From the NCBI GenBank assembly GCA_030690925.1, contig JAUYFO010000092.1:1-25630 (forward strand): a DNA stretch of 25,630 nt, in the 5' to 3' direction. Under the pieces are notes generated by a model. The model made no database searches, had not been told where the DNA came from, and worked only from the letters and a program-made list of their open reading frames with translations. A program made the position numbers and the translations under genes. The DNA comes from Candidatus Moraniibacteriota bacterium (GTDB lineage: Bacteria; Patescibacteriota; Minisyncoccia; Moranbacterales; UBA1568). This document shows, piece after piece, positions 7,541-19,120 of the stretch. The stretch's first letter is position 1, and the number at the start of each line of letters is the position of its first letter.

Positions 7541-7943
7541 TGGTGGAGTTGATGGGAATTGCACCCATGTCCAGAGAAGTTTTTCCAAAATAATCTACAA
7601 GCGTAGTCAACCTTGTATACGGGTGGGAGGTAGAAGGAAAACAAAACCCTCACACAAGTTCCTCTTTTGCAATACGATTAGGAAGTAAAAGAAAAAGAAA
7701 TTCTTCCGTCACGTCTCGATAATATGACACCAGCCTCTCCCTACCGAGAATCAGGATGCTGATGGCGACGCCAGTAATTAGGCGAGCGCAAGACTGTAAG
7801 AAGGGGCAAAAGCTTGCGCCAGTGCGTTCTTGGTCTTTGTGATGAAGTTTGCATTTATCATCGTGAGAGCGATATTTACGACCGTGCCCTCAAGGTCGGC
7901 TTGCATATTTTGAAAGTACAGCCTGTCGAGTCTCAACAACCCC
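7541..7943 (-). ncRNA. ssrA: tmRNA (ssrA), about 403 nt
   Basis: 5' GGGGTTG...CTCGAC pairs with 3' CAACTCC-ACCA including the G3.U alanine identity pair. T-arm-like GGACATGGGTGCAATTCCCATC. Internal tag frame 7852-7778 (ANFITKTKNALAQAFAPSYSLALA*). Adjacent to smpB. Confidence 0.95.
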
Positions 7944-8038
7944 CAGCCGCAACAACTTCACTTCCGTTGTTTGTTACGCTTGGTGACCGTCTAACACTGC
8001 TTCGTTTTTTGTAAACTTCTTTTTGTTGCGGAAATTTC

Positions 8039-8087
8039 AAAGCCCAAATTACAAATACCAAACAATTTTCAAAGGGGCTTTGTTTGA
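8039..8087. repeat. Second copy of the A/C-rich repeat motif, in a hairpin context
   Basis: CAAATTACAAATACCAAACAA (8045-8065) matches the reverse complement of the 3409-3443 arm at 18/21 positions. AAAGCCC/GGGCTTT can close a hairpin. Confidence 0.5.
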
Positions 8088-8097
8088 TCACTGTGTT

Positions 8098-8541
8098 TTA
8101 GGTCTTCATCGCTCGGCGAATCCTTCTTTGGGCTTCACGTTTGCCAATGTCGGCTCGCCGGTCGTATTCTTTTTTTCCCTTACCAACAGCAAACAGGAGC
8201 TTCACAAGTTGCTTCTTAGTATACAACCGAATCGGCACTAATGTCAAGCCTTCTGTGCGTGATTTTCCGATGAGAGAGCGGATTTCTCGCTTGCGAAGGA
8301 GGAGCTTTCGTGGTCTGGTAGCATCGTGGCTGGTATCACGGTGAGCTTGGGCGTAGCGGGGGATGAGGGCATTGGTCAGGTAGAGCTCGCTTCCTTTGAC
8401 GGTGACGAAAGCTCCTTTCAGGCTGGCATGGCCAGTTTTGACCGATTTGACCTCGGCTCCGGTCAATACTAAACCGGCCTCGTACTGGTCGGCGAGGGTA
8501 TAATCGAACGAAGCTCGTTTGTTGGTAGCTATGGTAGTCAT
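8098..8541 (-). CDS. smpB: SsrA-binding protein SmpB
   Basis: NKRASFDY...EAGLVLTGAEVKSVK...RKLLLRKREI...KGKKEYDRR. Confidence 0.98.
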   Translation of the reverse strand: MTTIATNKRASFDYTLADQYEAGLVLTGAEVKSVKTGHASLKGAFVTVKGSELYLTNALIPRYAQAHRDTSHDATRPRKLLLRKREIRSLIGKSRTEGLTLVPIRLYTKKQLVKLLFAVGKGKKEYDRRADIGKREAQRRIRRAMKT

Positions 8542-8595
8542 ATAGCCTCACTTTCCCACATTTGGCTCAAATAAGCAAGCTTCTGGACGTTTCTA

Positions 8596-8624
8596 TTGAC
8601 TTTTTACTTTAAAAGGTGTATAAT
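8596..8624 (+). promoter_or_regulatory. Near-consensus sigma70 promoter upstream of trhO
   Basis: TTGACT (8596-8601), 17-nt spacer, TATAAT (8619-8624). Confidence 0.8.
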
Positions 8625-8776
8625 GATATGTTGCAAGTAAAAATTCGCAATTACCTCCTTTCCCGGTGGTTTTTTTCTTTTTTCCTTAAATCACGAAATG
8701 AACGGTCGTGTACTTGATGAGATACAATAGTAACACTTCACTTTTTGGTTGGTTTCAGATACCATGAGATGAGCTT

Positions 8777-9814
8777 ATGATTGATACTCCCCATCAATTA
8801 CGCAACCACCTTTCCAAAGCCGAAGCACGGAAGCTTCTGGCAGTAGAACCGTTTTCGCGGCGGGTGATTTCTTTTTATCGCTACGTGATTCTTTCTGATC
8901 CGAAGCAATTGCGCGATGAGTTATTCGCCGAGTGGGTGAAGCTCGGTATCTTGGGGCGCATCTATGTGGCCAAGGAAGGCATCAATGCCCAGATGAGTGT
9001 GCCGGAACCGAACTTTGAAGCATTTCAAAAACTTTTGTATAAGTGCACAGCGTTCCATGGCGTGCCATTCAAGGTGGGAGTAGAACAAGAAGACGATGCT
9101 TTTTGGAAATTGACTATCAAGGTGAAGCGGCAGATTGTAGCCGATGGGTTGCAACCGGGGGACTATGATGTCACCAATGTTGGCGCCCACCTCTCGGCCC
9201 GAGAATTTAACGATATGCTAAAACGGCCGGAGACAGTGGTGGTGGATATGCGTAACAATTACGAATCGGTTATTGGGCATTTCGAAGGTGCTATTTGTCC
9301 ACCCGCCTATACCTTCAAAGAAGAGTTGCCATTGGTGAAAGAAGCACTGAAAGGTCAGGAGGACAAAGAAGTGCTGCTCTACTGCACCGGTGGGATTCGT
9401 TGCGAAAAAGCTAGTTCCTACCTGAAACACCATGGTTTCCAGAACGTTTACCAGCTTCATGGGGGAATTATTGACTACAAGCACCAGATACAGCGCGAGG
9501 GACTGCCATCGCAGTTCAAGGGCAAGAACTTTGTTTTTGATAATCGCCTGGGCGAGCGCATTACTGATGATGTACTAGCCAAGTGTTACCAGTGTGACAG
9601 CACGTGTGATGACTATACCAACTGCGAGAATGTGGAATGCAACCTGCTCTTCATCCAGTGTGCGGCATGCAAAGAAACATTCGCTGGTTGCTGTGGAGTC
9701 GAGTGCCAGGCCATTGCTGAGCTACCAGAAACCGAGCAGTTAAAACTGCGCAAAGGGAAAGTGCTTCCAAAAAACGCTGAAGCCTTCAAAAAGAAAGTTG
9801 CCGTGACGTGCTAA
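8777..9814 (+). CDS. trhO: tRNA U34 hydroxylase TrhO (YceA/UPF0176 rhodanese-domain family)
   Basis: ISFYRY, GRIYVAKEGINAQ, VVDMRNNYE, YCTGGIRCEKAS, YQLHGGIIDY, FKGKNFVFDNRL and a Cys-rich C-terminus are UPF0176 signatures. Confidence 0.9.
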   Translation: MIDTPHQLRNHLSKAEARKLLAVEPFSRRVISFYRYVILSDPKQLRDELFAEWVKLGILGRIYVAKEGINAQMSVPEPNFEAFQKLLYKCTAFHGVPFKVGVEQEDDAFWKLTIKVKRQIVADGLQPGDYDVTNVGAHLSAREFNDMLKRPETVVVDMRNNYESVIGHFEGAICPPAYTFKEELPLVKEALKGQEDKEVLLYCTGGIRCEKASSYLKHHGFQNVYQLHGGIIDYKHQIQREGLPSQFKGKNFVFDNRLGERITDDVLAKCYQCDSTCDDYTNCENVECNLLFIQCAACKETFAGCCGVECQAIAELPETEQLKLRKGKVLPKNAEAFKKKVAVTC

Positions 9815-12701: not shown

Positions 12702-13283
12702 ATGAAGCAAATCACTTTTTTTTTGGTACGGCACGGCGAAGCGGAAAATAACGTCCGCCATATTCTGAATTCAGCTCCGGTGAAGCAAGAGTATCCGCTC
12801 ACGGAACATGGAAAAGAACAGGCAACTAGGACTGCCAAGCAGCTGGCAACAGCGGGGGCTGATGTTCTTTTTAGTTCGCCCATCCTGCGGGCCAAGGAAA
12901 CGGCTGAGAGTATCGCGGCAGCAACCGGATTGCCGATCCAGTTTGATAATCGTTTGTGGGAAGTGGGGATGGGGAGATTCAATAACCATATCCAGCAAGA
13001 GCTCTTGGACAAGTATCCCGATCCCGAGATGCGGCTCTCTCCGGATGTAGCAGATGGGATGGAAAGTTTTCTAGAGGTGCGCAGTCGCTTGGATGATTTT
13101 TTGGGTGAAGTAAAAGAGAAGTATCTCGGAAAAAAAGTGATTATCGTGTCGCATGGTGACCCGCTGGAACAGCTCCATGGTATTCTGACACAGGAAGGGC
13201 CAGGCCGAGCAGCCGCTGGCTGGTATCCGGAAAAAGGCTCATGTACGGAAGTAGTCTGGGCAATCAAGGGGGAGTCAGTATAA
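12702..13283 (+). CDS. Histidine phosphatase (phosphoglycerate mutase-like) family protein
   Basis: LVRHGEAENN (RHG), SSPILRAKETA, LWEVGMG, IVSHGD. Confidence 0.9.
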   Translation: MKQITFFLVRHGEAENNVRHILNSAPVKQEYPLTEHGKEQATRTAKQLATAGADVLFSSPILRAKETAESIAAATGLPIQFDNRLWEVGMGRFNNHIQQELLDKYPDPEMRLSPDVADGMESFLEVRSRLDDFLGEVKEKYLGKKVIIVSHGDPLEQLHGILTQEGPGRAAAGWYPEKGSCTEVVWAIKGESV

Positions 13284-13321
13284 TAAGGGTTCCTTTTCTT
13301 TTTTCTCTGTAAAAAGCCCCA

Positions 13322-13353: not shown

Positions 13354-14442
13354 ATGAAATCACTCTCACTCAAAGATACGCTCGATCACCTCCCTGGGAG
13401 CTTGTTTATTACGGATCGGGAGTCACGGGTCCTCTACGCCAGTGCTGCCTTGGAGCAGCGTACGGGTTTCTCGGTAGCGGAAATCGTCGGCAAGAAACCA
13501 GGACAACTGTGGGGTGGAAAAATGGAAAAAACCTTCTATCGTGAGCTGTGGCAGACTATCGGTACGGAACGCCGGGCCTTTGTAGGACTGGTGAACAACC
13601 GCAAGAAAAGCGGCGCTCGTCGTGACGAACATATCTTTATTGTCCCTATTTGCAATCGCCTGGGAGAGACGGAGTATTTCGCCGAAATTCATCCGGATTT
13701 GGCCGGAAGAACAGCGGAAGAGGCTTTTGGGCGGGAGTTTCTTCGGCGGACAGAAACCATGATACAGGATCGGGACTTTTTCACATGGATTATTGAGAGT
13801 CTGCAGAAAAAAAAAGATGGTACGTTGGTCAGGTTGGATCAGTCTCTCTGGTACGGAGGTTTCCACGATGCCGCTCAATTTTTCCGGGAAACCCTGGTCA
13901 CACCGATGGAACAGGTATTTGCACGGCGCAAGGATGACGCTCTGCTCATAACCCATGCCCAAGAGAACCCGGAGAAGTTTGCGGCACTCTACCAGAAATA
14001 TGTGGTTTCGATAGGGGCGTATTTCTCCCGTCGGCTACACGGAGATAGTGCAGTGGCAGAGGATCTTACCCAGGAGGTCTTTGTCCGAGCGTTTCGTTAT
14101 CTTCCTGGTTTCCGCATGACCAATGCTTCCTACTACACCTACCTGCTTCGTTTGGCTCACAACATTTTAGTCAACCACTTTCGTACCCTACATCGCCAGG
14201 TCATGTCGTATCAGCATGATGGGGAGATGGAGAATTTCGTGGCCAAGAGCGATCACTCGGGGGAGGATGATATGGTGACTTTGCTCAAAACATTGGGGGA
14301 GAAAGAGAAGGCCATCATGCTTCTCAAGTATCGTGATGGGCTGAAGGCGAAGGAAATTGCTGCCCTGGTGGGCAAGAGTGAAAATGCGGTCAAGCTGATC
14401 CTGTCCCGAACGCGCAAGAGACTGAAAAAGAACCTTCAGTAA
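13354..14442 (+). CDS. PAS domain-ECF sigma-70 factor fusion protein
   Basis: Residues ~7-115 form a PAS/PAC domain (ITD...LYA...TGFS..EIVGK...YRELW...NNRKKSG...IVPI.N..GET.YF). Residues ~194-277 are sigma region 2 (DDALL...FAALYQKY...AEDLTQEVFVRAF...YLLRLAHNILVNHFR). Residues ~306-362 are sigma region 4 (LGEKEKAIMLLKYRDGLKAKEIAALVGKSENAVKLILSRTRKRL). One uninterrupted frame. Confidence 0.9.
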   Translation: MKSLSLKDTLDHLPGSLFITDRESRVLYASAALEQRTGFSVAEIVGKKPGQLWGGKMEKTFYRELWQTIGTERRAFVGLVNNRKKSGARRDEHIFIVPICNRLGETEYFAEIHPDLAGRTAEEAFGREFLRRTETMIQDRDFFTWIIESLQKKKDGTLVRLDQSLWYGGFHDAAQFFRETLVTPMEQVFARRKDDALLITHAQENPEKFAALYQKYVVSIGAYFSRRLHGDSAVAEDLTQEVFVRAFRYLPGFRMTNASYYTYLLRLAHNILVNHFRTLHRQVMSYQHDGEMENFVAKSDHSGEDDMVTLLKTLGEKEKAIMLLKYRDGLKAKEIAALVGKSENAVKLILSRTRKRLKKNLQ

Positions 14443-14553
14443 GGGAAAAATCTTGGAACAAAGAGTAATGGGTGGCACATGACACCTTTTTTGTTTTGTG
14501 GTGTTTAATACAGTGCAGCCTGCAGAATAATTCGCCAATTATTGAGGGTCTCT

Positions 14554-16668
14554 ATGCCACTCTACAAGATCCAGAAGCGTAATGGGACTATCGTAGACTT
14601 CGAGCCTGGTAAGATTAAGAACGCTATCGCCAAGGCCGCTCTATCGATCGGTCAGAGCGACCCCCTCATTCCGGAAGTGTTGGTAGCGGAGGTAGCGGTG
14701 GAGCTCGAAGAAAAGTGGAGCGATCAGATTCCCAGCGTGGAGCAGATTCAGGATGTGGTAGAGGACGTACTGATTCGTTTCGACTACGCTGAGATGGCCA
14801 AGGCCTATATTTTGTATCGGGAGAAGCGGCGTGAGGCCCGTGAGGATAAGAATGTGGTGGTGGAAGTACAGAAAACGGTGGCTGATTATCTCAACCGGGC
14901 CGATTGGCGGGTCAATGCCAATTCCAACCAAGGCTATTCGCTCGGGGGATTGATTCTGAATACGGCTGGCAGCGTCATCGCCAATTACTGGCTCTCCCAT
15001 ATTTACCCGAAAGCTGTTGGTGAGGCGCACCGCAACGGCGATTATCATATTCATGATCTCGATATGTTTTCCGGTTACTGTGCCGGTTGGAGTCTGCGCG
15101 TTCTTCTGGAAGAGGGCTTCAATGGTGTGACCAACAAGATCGAATCGGCACCACCGAAGCACCTTTCCTCGGCCGTGTCGCAGATGGTCAACTTTTTGGG
15201 GACACTGCAGAACGAGTGGGCCGGAGCCCAGGCTTTTTCCAGCTTCGATACCTACATGGCACCTTTTGTGAAGAAGAAGGAATTGGAGTTGCGAGAGGAT
15301 ATCGTTACGTATGGCATGAAGTTTTCTTCGAAAAAGAAAGAGGAAGCCTATGTCAGTGACGCCCTCTATAGCTACGTTTATCAGAATCTGCAGTCATTTG
15401 TCTTTAACTTAAACATTCCGTCCCGTTGGGGCACTCAGACGCCGTTTACCAACATCACGCTGGACTGGGATTGTCCCGAGGATTTGAAAGACAAACGCCT
15501 ATTGTTGGGGGGTAAGCCATTTCCCTACACTTTTGGCGAACTGGGAAAAGAGATGGATATCGTCAACCGGGCTTTCATCGAGATTATGACTCATGGGGAT
15601 GCCTGTGGGCGGACATTTACTTTTCCTATTCCGACTTACAATATCGGCAAGGACTTCGACTGGGAGAGTAAGAAGAATTTACCGTTGTTTGAGATGACGG
15701 CCAAGTACGGGACACCATATTTCCAGAATTTCATCAACTCAGAGCTCAATCCAGGTGACGTGCGTTCCATGTGCTGTCGGTTACAGCTCGACTTACGGGA
15801 ACTACGCAAGCGTGGTGGTGGGCTCTTCGGTTCGGCCGAAATGACAGGTTCCATCGGAGTGGTGACTATCAATGCGGCCCGTATCGGATATCTGACCAAG
15901 GGTGATAAGGAAAAGTTTTTCGCTCAGATCGAGCACCTGATGCAACTAGCCAAGACATCGCTTGAGATAAAACGCAAAGTGATTCAGGAATGGATCGACC
16001 GGGGATTGTTTCCGTACACCAAACGCTACCTCGGGTACCTGAAAAATCACTTCTCGACTATCGGTATCAATGGAGTAAACGAAGCCATCCGTAACTTTAC
16101 TGATGATCAGGAAAATATCACTACCAAGTGGGGCAACGCCTTTGCTGAGGAAGTGCTGGTGTTTATGCAAGAAAAGATTAAGTCGTTTCAGGAAGAAACC
16201 AAGAACTTCTATAACCTAGAGGCCACGCCGGCCGAAGGGACGACCTACCGGTTCGCCAAGGAAGACCGCAAGCGTTTTCCCGATATTCTTCAGGCGGGGA
16301 CCGCGGAAGCCCCCTACTACACCAACTCTTCTCAGGTACCGGTGGGCTATACTGACGATATCTTCGAGGTACTCGATCTCCAGGATAATCTGCAGACCAA
16401 ATATACCGGGGGAACGGTGCTCCACTGCTATATGACCGAAAAGATCTCATCACCGGAAGCTTGTCGCAATCTGGTGCGCAAGATTCTGAGGCACTATCGT
16501 TTGCCGTACATCACCATTACTCCAACCTTTTCCATCTGTCCCAAGCACGGCTATCTCTCGGGTGAATATGATTTTTGTCCCAAGTGCGACGCAGAAATCG
16601 GTACAGTGGGTGAGCGCTTCGACGAGACCTATCGCAAGACCTACATGAGCGCCAAAGCAGAGAAGTAA
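14554..16668 (+). CDS. nrdD: Class III (anaerobic) ribonucleoside-triphosphate reductase, large polypeptide lacking the glycyl-radical segment
   Basis: N-terminal ATP cone (IQKRNG...FEPGKIKNAI...AKAYILYR), YHIHDL, GYCAGWSL, RSMCCRLQLD, LEATPAEG, C-terminal CPKHG...CPKC zinc site. No R-x-x-G-Y motif in this ORF. ATG 14554 preferred to TTG 14542. Confidence 0.93.
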   Translation: MPLYKIQKRNGTIVDFEPGKIKNAIAKAALSIGQSDPLIPEVLVAEVAVELEEKWSDQIPSVEQIQDVVEDVLIRFDYAEMAKAYILYREKRREAREDKNVVVEVQKTVADYLNRADWRVNANSNQGYSLGGLILNTAGSVIANYWLSHIYPKAVGEAHRNGDYHIHDLDMFSGYCAGWSLRVLLEEGFNGVTNKIESAPPKHLSSAVSQMVNFLGTLQNEWAGAQAFSSFDTYMAPFVKKKELELREDIVTYGMKFSSKKKEEAYVSDALYSYVYQNLQSFVFNLNIPSRWGTQTPFTNITLDWDCPEDLKDKRLLLGGKPFPYTFGELGKEMDIVNRAFIEIMTHGDACGRTFTFPIPTYNIGKDFDWESKKNLPLFEMTAKYGTPYFQNFINSELNPGDVRSMCCRLQLDLRELRKRGGGLFGSAEMTGSIGVVTINAARIGYLTKGDKEKFFAQIEHLMQLAKTSLEIKRKVIQEWIDRGLFPYTKRYLGYLKNHFSTIGINGVNEAIRNFTDDQENITTKWGNAFAEEVLVFMQEKIKSFQEETKNFYNLEATPAEGTTYRFAKEDRKRFPDILQAGTAEAPYYTNSSQVPVGYTDDIFEVLDLQDNLQTKYTGGTVLHCYMTEKISSPEACRNLVRKILRHYRLPYITITPTFSICPKHGYLSGEYDFCPKCDAEIGTVGERFDETYRKTYMSAKAEK

Positions 16669-16703
16669 TAAAAACAAAAAGTAATTCCTCTAACAGTACC
16701 ATT

Positions 16704-16895
16704 ATGGCTGGAGCACAGGTAGCAGATAACGCCGGACGCACCCGCTGTGAAGTGTGGACTCGTGTCATGGGGTACCATCGGCCCGTTTCGCACTTCAACG
16801 TCGGGAAAAAAGCGGAGCACTATTCGCGCAAGCACTTCGAGGAGTGTGTGGCAGACAACGTTTCTTTTGAAGCGCGCTACGGAGAGGCGACCTAA
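16704..16895 (+). CDS. Stand-alone NrdD C-terminal glycyl-radical polypeptide (63 aa)
   Basis: CEVWTRVMGYHRPVSHFNVGKKAEHYSRKHF corresponds to the NrdD glycyl-radical loop (R-V-x-G-Y) and its C-terminal tail. Confidence 0.85.
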   Translation: MAGAQVADNAGRTRCEVWTRVMGYHRPVSHFNVGKKAEHYSRKHFEECVADNVSFEARYGEAT

Positions 16896-16917
16896 GATTT
16901 TTTTGGTAGTTACTTCC

Positions 16918-17622
16918 ATGAAACTTTCGGCCATCCAAAAGTTTACCATTCTCGACTATCCGAACAAGGTAGCGTGTATCGCTTTTACCCCTGGGTGCAA
17001 TATGCGTTGTGGTTTCTGCCACAACCCGGAGTTTGTGCTGCCAGAAAAAATACGCGAACTAGATGGTAACTTCATTGCCGAGGAGACGTTTTTCCGCTTC
17101 CTCGATCAACGGCGGGGACTACTTGAGGGAGTGGTAGTGTCAGGCGGAGAGCCAACCATCTGGCAGGATTTACCCGAATTTTTTGGTAAGATTAAAGCAT
17201 TGGGATTTTTGACCAAGCTTGATACCAATGGCAATCATCCCGAGATGCTTGAGCAGTTACTTCGGGAGAAGCTGGTAGATTATGTGGCTATGGATGTCAA
17301 AACGTCACTGGCTCAGTACCCCAAGCTGGTGGGCGGGGGCGTGAAGTGCAACAACATCGCAGAGAGTATGGAACTTTTGAAATCGTCCGGTACCCCTTAT
17401 GAATTTCGCACGACACTCATCAAAGAGGTACACAATGAAGAAGTACTAGGAGATATGAAGCAGATGCTAGCTGGGGCGGAAAAGTTTTTTTTACAAACCT
17501 TTCGTCCTGGACATACGCTCAATTCCGTTTTTGCAACCTATCATCCATTCTCGAGTGAAGAGACCGACCGGATTGCGCAGACCTTTCAAAAAGAAGTGGC
17601 TTCGGTCAGTATAAGAAATTAA
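16918..17622 (+). CDS. nrdG: Anaerobic RNR activating radical-SAM enzyme
   Basis: GCNMRCGFCHN (CxxxCxxC), VVVSGGEPT, KLDTNG, YEFRTT. ATG 16918 preferred, since the track start 16747 overlaps the small nrdD gene. Confidence 0.92.
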   Translation: MKLSAIQKFTILDYPNKVACIAFTPGCNMRCGFCHNPEFVLPEKIRELDGNFIAEETFFRFLDQRRGLLEGVVVSGGEPTIWQDLPEFFGKIKALGFLTKLDTNGNHPEMLEQLLREKLVDYVAMDVKTSLAQYPKLVGGGVKCNNIAESMELLKSSGTPYEFRTTLIKEVHNEEVLGDMKQMLAGAEKFFLQTFRPGHTLNSVFATYHPFSSEETDRIAQTFQKEVASVSIRN

Positions 17623-17638
17623 CTTTTAAGAAACGGAT

Positions 17639-18871
17639 ATGTTTGAGGTTTTTTCTCTGGTGAAGTTCTTGATCTTGCAGGGGGCTGGACTGGTTATCGC
17701 TCTCATCGCGGCGGGCTTGTTTGTGTACCTCGTTTTACGCAAGCTCCATTCTTCGAGGATTACCCTTTTTCTGTTTTTCTTTTTCTTTGGAACGTGTTTG
17801 CTGTTGTATGTTCCGATGGGTATACCGAGTAGCATCACCTATCCTTTTGGGTTGAAAACCTACGGCCCGGCGGAGGGCCCCTGGCTACCACTAAAAAATG
17901 TTTTTACTTTTTTCCGGCACGTCCGGCAATTTGAACGTGTGGCTGACATCGCGCGGGACCCAAACGTCACCCCGGCGCCGCTCCGTGCCGAAGGCGAGGA
18001 AGTGTCTCTCCATCTCACTACCAAAGAAGTGCTGGCTGAGATAGCGCCGGGAGTGGTGGTGAACTACTGGACATTCGATGGGACCGTGCCGGGGCCGATG
18101 CTGCGCGTGCGAGAAGGAGACATGGTACACGTGACTCTGAGCAATGATTCCAACAGCCTGCACCATCACAGTGTCGATTTTCACGCCGTAACTGGCCCTG
18201 GTGGTGGTGGCGTTGCCACCTATGTGGCTCCCGGAGAGTCTAAAGACTTTCGTTTTCGAGCCCTGAACCCGGGGTTGTATGTTTATCACTGCGCCGCTCC
18301 TAATGTCGCCAATCATATGGCGCACGGTATGTATGGAATGATCTTGGTAGAACCCAAGGAAGGATTGCCACAAGTGGATAAGGAATTCTACGTGATGCAG
18401 GGTGAAGTATATACTGCTGGTAAGATGGGGACTCAGGGTCTCCAAGTGATCGATACCGAGAAGATGCTTTCTGGGAATGCTGAGTATATTATTTTTAATG
18501 GGAGAGTGGGCGGTCTTAACGGAAAAATGACGGCCGCTACCGGGGAAAAGGTACGGATCTACTTCGGGAACGGAGGAGTGAGTGATATTTCTTCCTTTCA
18601 CGTCATTGGAGAAATATTTGATACGGTATACCCGGAGGCTTCTATCGGAGGGGCTCTCTTGAAAAATGTGCAGACAACGCTGGTACCGGCGGGAGGGGCT
18701 ACCATAGTGGAGTTTGGTCTAGAGGTGCCGGGACGCTATATACTGGTCGATCATGCCCTATCACGACTGGATCGTGGGGCTTGGGGGGTGCTCGAGGTGA
18801 CTGGCACAGAGAATCGCGAGGTGTTTGATGCAGCCGTAGATCCTCAGGTTGCCGCTACGCCGGGGCACTAG
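17639..18871 (+). CDS. nirK: Copper-containing nitrite reductase (AniA/class II-like) with two N-terminal TM helices
   Basis: HSVDFHAVTGPGG, YVYHCAAPNVANHMAHGMYG, SSFHVIGEIFD and LVDHALSR supply the type-1/type-2 Cu ligands and the catalytic Asp/His. Confidence 0.9.
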   Translation: MFEVFSLVKFLILQGAGLVIALIAAGLFVYLVLRKLHSSRITLFLFFFFFGTCLLLYVPMGIPSSITYPFGLKTYGPAEGPWLPLKNVFTFFRHVRQFERVADIARDPNVTPAPLRAEGEEVSLHLTTKEVLAEIAPGVVVNYWTFDGTVPGPMLRVREGDMVHVTLSNDSNSLHHHSVDFHAVTGPGGGGVATYVAPGESKDFRFRALNPGLYVYHCAAPNVANHMAHGMYGMILVEPKEGLPQVDKEFYVMQGEVYTAGKMGTQGLQVIDTEKMLSGNAEYIIFNGRVGGLNGKMTAATGEKVRIYFGNGGVSDISSFHVIGEIFDTVYPEASIGGALLKNVQTTLVPAGGATIVEFGLEVPGRYILVDHALSRLDRGAWGVLEVTGTENREVFDAAVDPQVAATPGH

Positions 18872-18878
18872 TCAAGGG

Positions 18879-18907
18879 TTGATTTCTCCCTGCAAGCCTG
18901 CTAGACT
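18879..18907 (+). promoter_or_regulatory. Sigma70 promoter of the ileS leader
   Basis: TTGATT (18879-18884), 17-nt spacer, TAGACT (18902-18907), with TG at 18899-18900. Confidence 0.65.
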
Positions 18908-18919
18908 GAATCTACAATT

Positions 18920-19120
18920 TTGAAAAGCGTTGAGGGAGCACATCACTCCTGAGCTGTAGAAAGAAACCTGCCGGTTGGCAGAGAGTAGAATCTATCGGAA
19001 CTGCCCGTAATAGCAGGCGAATAAGTCCGTCTGCCGGTTGGTAGGTGGAGAAGTAAGGTGGTACCACGTTTTGAATGTTTCAAACGTCCTTAGCACGGTT
19101 TTGTGTTAGGGATTTTTTGT
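18920..19120 (+). promoter_or_regulatory. T-box riboswitch (Ile) with antiterminator/terminator
   Basis: T-box AAGGTGGTACCACG (19055-19068). Antiterminator ACGTTTTGAA/TTTCAAACGT then CCT. Terminator CCTTAGCAC/GTGTTAGGG plus T tract (19088-19120). CCCGTAA stem IIA/B-like motif. Candidate Ile specifier ATC at 18994-18996. Directly upstream of ileS. Confidence 0.85.

Follow-up and report, generated by a model that had tools for sequence, protein, structure and literature searches.

A PAS-fused ECF sigma factor as the probable regulator of a split anaerobic ribonucleotide reductase operon in a Moraniibacteriota genome

We are interested here in the regulation of an anaerobic ribonucleotide reductase (RNR) in a member of the Patescibacteria, or candidate phyla radiation (CPR). 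We study a stretch of 25,630 nucleotides (nt) from a Candidatus Moraniibacteriota bacterium (contig JAUYFO010000092.1, positions 1 to 25,630 of the forward strand), to which we refer in its full length as the window; it is contig C29 of a 724-kb, 92-contig genome, 84% complete, that was assembled from groundwater. Between positions 13,354 and 18,871 the window carries a gene for a sigma factor of the extracytoplasmic function (ECF) type with a fused PAS domain, which we call PAS-sigma, and then nrdD, a gene for a small glycyl-radical peptide, nrdG and nirK. We conclude that PAS-sigma is probably a one-component regulator, which drives the nrdD operon from a conserved promoter motif located between the sigma gene and nrdD. 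By comparative genomics, this conclusion rests on the identities of the genes, on their linkage, on a directional motif of fixed spacing, on the rarity of that motif in the genome, and on its loss where PAS-sigma is absent.

The original prediction described this region as five co-oriented genes separated by gaps of 111, 35, 22 and 16 nt, and the listing of open reading frames (ORFs), together with family scans, bears this out. The block is flanked by argS, a histidine phosphatase gene and ileS. Its features are as follows.

13257..13284, plus strand: sigma70-like promoter TGGGCA-16-TATAAT upstream of the PAS-sigma gene, with 10/12 matches (a consensus match only).
13354..14442, plus strand: gene for the PAS-ECF sigma factor of 362 amino acids (aa), with PAS, Sigma70_r2 and Sigma70_r4_2 domains (Pfam, NCBIfam).
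14470..14497, plus strand: hairpin and T-run 3' of the sigma gene, the 3' arm of which is the TGACACC box.
14480..14507, plus strand: candidate ECF-type bipartite motif, consisting of TGACACC (14480-14486), a 16-nt spacer, and GTTTA (14503-14507) after GT.
14554..16668, plus strand: nrdD, large subunit with ATP-cone, catalytic barrel and Zn ribbon (NF006126, TIGR02487).
16704..16895, plus strand: 63-aa glycyl-radical peptide with RVMGY, matching the last 33 positions of the NRDD model only.
16918..17622, plus strand: nrdG, radical S-adenosylmethionine (SAM) activase with CNMRCGFC (TIGR02495, 194 bits versus a cut-off of 131).
17639..18871, plus strand: nirK, AniA-type copper nitrite reductase (TIGR02376, 316.5 bits versus a cut-off of 296.3).

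The motif is present in all 25 sigma-nrdD gaps shorter than 400 nt, where it reads TGACACCTTTT, about 10 nt, and then (G)GTGTTTA. This first observation came from aligning the gaps and is not circular. When spacers of 15 to 18 nt are permitted, we obtain a collection of 49 non-redundant sites, in which the distance between TGACACC and GTTT is 16 nt in 39 cases and 17 nt in 10. One locus (L017) has the variant TGAAACC in place of TGACACC. The motif remains 5' of nrdD when the PAS-sigma gene is 0.9 kb (L009) or 9 kb (L019) distant, or on another contig (the genome of L020); in genome G011, some 690 nt lie between a motif 3' of the sigma gene and the start of nrdD. Exact copies are rare: there are two in the 724-kb genome of the window, and none in the reversed control.

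The B. subtilis sigmaW promoter is TGAAAC-N16-CGTA, and the -10 element of sigmaR/SigH is GTT. The layout of the motif, that is, an AC-rich -35 box, a spacer of 16-17 nt and a -10 box containing GT(T), is the architecture of such ECF promoters. It differs from the TTGACA-17-TATAAT type found 5' of the PAS-sigma gene itself (13257-13284). Transcription of nrdD is predicted to start a few nucleotides 3' of 14507, so that some 40 nt of leader would precede the nrdD ATG; this ATG, at 14554, is preceded by GAGGG, and the first start listed for the frame is a TTG at 14542. The original prediction held that the gap lacks the usual regulatory elements, and we agree: the gap (14443-14553) contains no sigma70 hexamer pair at the scan threshold and no FNR box with two or fewer mismatches. 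Nor is there an NrdR-like 16-mer with five or fewer mismatches near the nrdD start (14381-14556), in a scan run without a positive control, which finds nothing 5' of the class I RNR gene or of nrdR in the same genome either. We depart from that prediction in the choice of the -35 box. It had proposed GGAAC (14455-14459) as an ECF -35 core; these letters are present as claimed, but they are absent from the equivalent gap of 24 homologous loci, and the conserved box is TGACACC.

The linkage of PAS-sigma to nrdD was assessed by scanning representative genomes and by tblastn with the window proteins, which yields 30 loci with full-length PAS-sigma homologues, all of them in the CPR. An nrdD gene lies immediately 3' of the sigma gene (same strand, gap below 200 nt) in 22 of the 30 loci, and on the same strand within 10 kb in 26; the separate glycyl-radical peptide gene and nrdG come after nrdD wherever the contig is long enough. 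No nrdD is found near any of ten relatives (L032-L041) that have the sigma part only and lack a PAS domain. Among 25 sampled genomes of the genus, 15 have PAS-sigma, and nrdD occurs in all 15 of these; it adjoins PAS-sigma in 14, the locus of the fifteenth being broken by a contig end. Locus L030 is degenerate, since only a 109-aa ATP-cone remnant follows its PAS-sigma gene. The neighbourhood of PAS-sigma homologues had been set in advance as a test on which the proposed link to nrdD could fail, and by these counts the neighbours are non-random.

Genomes that lack PAS-sigma allow us to ask what the motif depends upon. Four of them (G003, G012, G029 and G040) carry an orthologous split nrdD operon, 73-79% identical, without PAS-sigma. 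The motif is absent 5' of nrdD in all four, and in each an NrdR-box-like palindrome is found there instead; G003 retains just a decayed TGATACCTTTTT. Similarly, at the YedZ-like gene of G012 (whose counterpart in the window's genome is described below), an extended -10 element, TGcTATAAT, replaces the motif. Other small ECF-like sigmas are still encoded in these four genomes. Since the motif is lost where PAS-sigma is absent, even though other ECF-like sigmas remain, it tracks PAS-sigma specifically. From this co-variation, and from the linkage, we infer that PAS-sigma reads the TGACACC-N16/17-GTTTA motif. The further proposal that PAS-sigma replaces NrdR does not hold. The genome encodes nrdR (contig C27), and therefore PAS-sigma does not replace NrdR; in L012, L016 and L027, moreover, an NrdR-like box stands just 5' of the sigma-type promoter.

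Two other explanations of the motif must be weighed against the one we prefer. The motif might be read by another factor, either a second ECF-like sigma or a DNA-binding regulator, while PAS-sigma serves a different regulon that we do not see. Such a second ECF-type sigma does exist in the genome, and many sites contain ACACC...GGTGT as an inverted repeat, imperfect but of a kind that a dimeric regulator might bind. At several sites, however, the GGTGT half becomes CCGTTT, GCGTTT or ACGTTT, while GTTT and the spacing are unchanged; the motif points in every case toward the gene that lies 3' of it; and it is gone from the four genomes that lack PAS-sigma but keep other small ECF sigmas. We consider this explanation distinctly unlikely. 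We consider it highly unlikely that the element acts chiefly as an intrinsic terminator for the sigma gene, and that nrdD is expressed by the housekeeping sigma, by read-through, or by both, under the control of NrdR. It is true that TGACACC forms the 3' arm of the terminator hairpin of the sigma gene, strong and with a T-run, at most sigma-nrdD sites; for example, the hairpin reaches -16.7 and -18.2 kcal/mol in L002 and L005 (z about -5). In the window it is weak, at -6.7 kcal/mol (z of -0.18). The presence of nrdR and the NrdR-box-like palindromes in L012, L016 and L027 are in keeping with control by NrdR. But the sites 5' of the YedZ-like gene, of nirK (in G011) and of the glycyl-radical peptide gene keep both boxes and their spacing without any 5' arm, and because they lack this arm we take the conserved element to be a promoter box rather than a hairpin. 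In addition, the sequence of a stem is not normally conserved across sigma proteins that are just 35-60% identical, the gap has no sigma70 hexamer pair, and the window has no NrdR box.

Several observations weigh against the view that PAS-sigma drives nrdD from this motif. There is no nrdD within reach of PAS-sigma at loci L014, L020 and L028, and at L026 the nrdD gene is 3.9 kb away and lacks the motif. The second ECF-like sigma mentioned above (contig C28) is encoded in the very genome of the window. Since the hairpin is weak in the window, transcription that starts at the sigma promoter could also continue into nrdD and express it. The per-position conservation across the 49 sites is partly circular, as these sites were gathered by pattern. 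Finally, the genomes compared are metagenome assemblies, and the public runs that contain the window sequence are DNA groundwater metagenomes only.

The protein itself belongs to the ECF sigma factors and has a regulatory domain fused to it. It consists of a PAS domain (residues ~7-116), a helical linker (~118-188), sigma2 (~206-285), a disordered linker (283-305) and sigma4 (~304-361). The Pfam matches, Sigma70_r2 at 223-281 and Sigma70_r4_2 at 308-357, are separated by fewer than 50 aa, as ECF factors require, and the Pfam scan finds no match to Sigma70 region 3. PAS-sigma scores 72.7 bits against the general sigma70-ECF model TIGR02937 (cut-off 42.9). In the NCBIfam scan it joins no named ECF subfamily, as all subfamily and equivalog models are far under their cut-offs; the top one is TIGR02952, the BldN family, with 86.9 bits versus 206. 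No anti-sigma gene lies beside it, its neighbours being the histidine phosphatase gene and nrdD. Clustered at 90% identity, the family has at least 120 clusters, every one of which combines PAS, sigma2 and sigma4, and its members are labelled as Moranii-, Magasanik-, Uhr- and Nomurabacteria.

In an AlphaFold2 (AF2) model of PAS-sigma (pLDDT, the predicted local distance difference test, 83.7; pTM, the predicted template-modelling score, 0.62), three to four linker helices follow the PAS domain, and a disordered linker separates sigma2 from sigma4; the sigma portion of the model matches E. coli sigmaE (1OR7). For the PAS domain, the nearest match is PAS1 of NifL, which binds flavin adenine dinucleotide (FAD) (2GJ3; E 2.4e-14, and a Foldseek template-modelling score of 0.83 with a root-mean-square deviation of 2.3 A over 113 residues); the next matches are MmoS, LOV domains and Aer. 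The cysteine of LOV domains is absent, the corresponding segment reading GKKPGQLWGG. These resemblances suggest that the PAS domain of the sigma factor may bind flavin. A point against flavin binding is that Phe76 of PAS-sigma occupies the position of a Trp in NifL.

These results can be arranged into a mechanism in four steps. The sigma70-like promoter at 13257-13284 would transcribe the PAS-sigma gene, and its sequence suggests that this transcription is constitutive. The PAS domain would then gate the activity of the sigma factor, which would most plausibly be active in a reduced or anoxic cell. The resulting holoenzyme would initiate at TGACACC-N16-GTTTA and produce nrdD, the glycyl-radical peptide gene, nrdG and nirK as one transcript. 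A second copy of the promoter, on contig C80, would drive a YedZ/MsrQ-like haem-b membrane protein. Because NrdD is oxygen-sensitive, the most parsimonious view is that reducing or anoxic conditions activate the sigma factor, and low oxygen or a reduced state is accordingly the signal that we would propose. Alternatively, PAS-sigma may respond to exposure to oxygen, resupplying the radical peptide, Hsp20 and the MsrQ-like protein.

The genome also encodes a class I NrdA with an ATP-cone (C8:10239-12854, locus L106; TIGR02506, 534 bits versus a cut-off of 341), directly 3' of the end of a Fe/Mn superoxide dismutase-like gene. An oxygen-dependent class I NrdA in addition to a class III RNR would suggest that the cell needs a switch between the two.

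The second exact copy of the motif (C80:1093-1121) lies 40 nt 5' of a gene for a 269-aa multi-pass membrane protein (L083:246-1052, minus strand), which comes after a DsbB-like gene. The motif is kept 5' of the orthologous gene in four more genomes (G002, G011, G016 and G021). The 269-aa protein itself has no match in Pfam, even at an E-value of 5, and an AF2 model built from six orthologues has a pLDDT of 59.8, too poor for a structure search. Its orthologues are annotated with PF01794 (ferric-reductase-like), some of them being named at source as the haem-binding membrane subunit of YedYZ, and two histidines in transmembrane (TM) helices, H97 and H169, are invariant. The protein is thus a putative YedZ/MsrQ-like haem membrane protein. 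It is a matter of speculation that it might pass electrons to an outward-facing NirK.

Beyond these sites, a copy of the motif stands 5' of the glycyl-radical peptide gene in three loci (L017:7467, L021:10657 and L022:8683), 5' of a D-2-hydroxyacid dehydrogenase gene in L026 (2516-3454), and in L028 5' of both an Hsp20 gene (8588-9016) and a divergent gene for an uncharacterised protein of 150 aa (8012-8464, minus strand). Two sites with one mismatch occur in the window's genome. The first, C70:5751, lies inside a coding region, and we reject it as probably due to chance. The other, TTACACCTTTCATAACGTCAGGTGTTT at C34:243-269 (plus strand), is about 130 nt 5' of a dnaE-like start and may be a terminator instead. 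In an even draw of 400 genomes from the whole phylum, the strict motif matched 12 genomes, with a similar number in the reversed control, and about four of these look genuine (the window's genome, G427, G363 and G262). Since only about four of 400 genomes look genuine, the PAS-sigma system is patchy across the phylum.

The RNR of this operon is a split enzyme. The nrdD product is clearly a class III large subunit (NF006126, 1089 bits versus 548; TIGR02487, 459 bits versus 326), but its match to NF006126 stops at position 664 of 684, and the C-terminal glycyl-radical loop (RVxGY) is missing from it. The loop is found on the 63-aa ORF. NrdG has the CxxxCxxC motif of radical-SAM enzymes, in the form CNMRCGFC. 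The glycyl-radical peptide is a separate ORF, with a gap of ~25-970 nt, at all of the sigma-linked nrdD loci examined as well as in G003, G012, G029 and G040. The same order includes genomes of other families with a separate glycyl-radical ORF only (G028, G031 and G039), and two genomes (G027 and G038) with a fused NrdD, in frames of 772 and 756 aa that include the radical loop, together with a further stand-alone glycyl-radical ORF about 300 nt 3' of it:

G027:C2:30296-30777 (locus L127): extra stand-alone glycyl-radical ORF.
G038:C13:81909-82382 (locus L128): extra stand-alone glycyl-radical ORF.

This distribution suggests an evolutionary path from a fused NrdD with a spare peptide to an obligatorily split enzyme. 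As the large subunit encoded in the window lacks a glycyl-radical loop, the 63-aa peptide is obligatory rather than spare. In L017, L021 and L022 the peptide gene has its own promoter motif, and therefore the peptide can be made independently of the NrdD large subunit.

We turn to nirK, the last gene of the block. Judged by its sequence, the window protein is a genuine AniA-type NirK: it aligns to Neisseria AniA (1KBV) with an E-value of 9e-100, and the copper-ligand motifs HSVDFH, YHCAAPNVANHMAHGM, SSFHVIGE and LVDHAL are aligned, so that the type 1 and type 2 copper sites and the catalytic Asp and His are all in place, the ligands being assigned after those of AniA. Two N-terminal TM helices are joined by a positively charged loop, RKLHSSR, and by the positive-inside rule the catalytic domain would lie outside the cell. 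The gene starts 16 nt 3' of nrdG with no terminator between them, and the same nrdG-nirK junction is found in L008/L186, L129 and L130. In G011, nirK lies directly 5' of the sigma gene and has its own motif, TGACACCTTTTGGGTAAGAAAAGTGTTTC, 62 nt before the nirK ATG. That is, nirK is wired to the same type of promoter in two ways, and it is therefore an accessory member of the regulon, not a core member. The original prediction, that PAS-sigma co-controls the RNR and nirK, thus stands insofar as both wirings tie nirK to the motif, but nirK is no conserved core of the system: it is present in 2 of the 25 genus genomes, both times at the PAS-sigma locus.

It remains to weigh whether nirK is simply a passenger that was inserted between nrdG and ileS, is transcribed with its neighbours by chance, and has no functional link to the RNR or to the sigma factor on which selection has acted. 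In favour of a passenger, nirK is absent from 13 of the 15 genus genomes with PAS-sigma and from most homologous PAS-sigma loci, and L164, which belongs to the same NirK clade as the window, has neither PAS-sigma nor the motif within 6 kb. Against a passenger stand the arrangement in G011, where nirK occupies another place within the locus and a separate copy of the motif precedes it, and the nrdG-nirK junction shared by four genomes. More broadly, we took 67 CPR nirK loci (L129-L195), all with the same TM anchor, together with 6-kb flanks. An RNR gene lies within 6 kb in 24 of the 67: class II in 15, class I in 5 (NrdB with an ATP-cone, plus NrdA) and class III in 4. These loci are scattered on the NirK tree, with a parsimony of 6 changes for the three labels together, and the starred branches of the tree force at least 2-3 changes per RNR class. 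An ArsR-type gene stands directly 5' of nirK in 20 loci, of which 19 have an RNR gene nearby, mostly divergent and adjacent. We therefore regard a passenger as unlikely, and the recurrent adjacency of nirK to RNRs of classes I, II and III may reflect a functional coupling between the handling of nitrite or nitric oxide (NO) and the reduction of ribonucleotides. The original prediction had called the pairing paradoxical, as NO can damage radical and Fe-S enzymes; the paradox is softened by the predicted outward position of NirK, and the pairing is recurrent in the CPR rather than a single case.

The explanation can be extended to a one-component sigma factor that is gated directly by a bound flavin sensing oxygen or redox state. 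Ultra-small CPR bacteria would thereby have a minimal anaerobic regulon of about three promoters, covering the split class III RNR together with a glycyl-radical spare part that can be transcribed on its own, the YedZ-like protein and sometimes NirK; a coupling of nirK to RNR would be added to this. We offer this extended version only tentatively, and are inclined to doubt that all of it is correct.

Some further elements of the window may be recorded. A promoter-like pair, TTGATT-17-TAGACT, lies at about 18879-18907, immediately 3' of the nirK stop codon. It is followed by a T-box leader 5' of ileS (18921-19094, plus strand), which scores 52.3 bits versus the Rfam gathering score of 93; a local search matches the full-length model at an E-value of 9e-11, and the leader includes GGTGGTACCACG. 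A terminator-like hairpin (19086-19113) stands immediately 5' of the ileS ATG. Elsewhere, at 7541-7943 on the minus strand, the window contains a gene for transfer-messenger RNA (RF00023, 109 bits).

Gene regulation in the CPR is almost unstudied, and this locus offers a complete circuit that can be tested, in which a sensor-fused sigma factor is paired with a defined promoter and the regulon counts two to three promoters. The circuit provides a rationale for the choice between class I and class III RNR without FNR. A sigma factor equipped with a sensor of the cofactor type would be a new mode of ECF regulation, and possibly a compact, orthogonal expression switch that responds to oxygen or redox state. 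The presence of nirK in the CPR, long noted yet unexplained, becomes a concrete question by way of its co-regulation and its linkage to RNR. CPR papers mention nirK and not a sigma-nrdD-nirK circuit, and our search of the literature for PAS-ECF fusions, for sigma control of nrdDG and for a split NrdD found nothing relevant.

Depending upon which part of the system is considered, the comparison with known regulators leads in different directions. Like ECF41, ECF42, ECF44/CorE, ECF121 BldN and ECF36 SigC, PAS-sigma combines sigma2 with sigma4 but lacks sigma3, has no anti-sigma gene next to it, bears a regulatory extension within its own chain, and has a small regulon of its own beside its gene. 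Its extension differs in being an N-terminal PAS sensor of about 115 aa together with some 70 aa of helical linker. In the ECF classification paper and two reviews, the extensions described are C-terminal or, in a few cases, short and N-terminal (ECF121 BldN, ECF36 SigC), with no PAS fusion (PMC7826278, PMC7671368, PMC8999054).

With respect to the sensor, the closest relatives in both sequence and fold are NifL PAS1 of Azotobacter vinelandii (2GJ3) and the PAS of MmoS (3EWK), which are flavin-based sensors of oxygen or redox state. In those systems the output is a partner protein or a kinase, whereas in PAS-sigma it is the fused sigma factor, and the cofactor is predicted. With respect to the promoter, the system resembles sigmaR/SigH with RsrA/RshA, and promoters of the sigmaW type, in that a redox-linked ECF would use an AC-rich -35 box, a 16-17-nt spacer and a GTT -10 box. 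It differs from sigmaR/SigH in that sensing is proposed to occur through the fused PAS domain rather than a zinc anti-sigma factor, and in its -35 box, TGACACC.

The control of nrdDG differs in turn from its activation by FNR in E. coli or by Anr/Dnr in Pseudomonas, as here an alternative sigma factor would select the promoter with no activator of the CRP/FNR type. It differs also from nrdDG repressed by NrdR, since NrdR is encoded but the gap in the window has no NrdR box. Finally, GrcA/YfiD is an autonomous glycyl-radical spare part of pyruvate formate-lyase. The 63-aa peptide is similarly a small stand-alone glycyl-radical polypeptide encoded by a separate gene, with its own promoter motif in L017, L021 and L022; unlike GrcA/YfiD, it belongs to NrdD.

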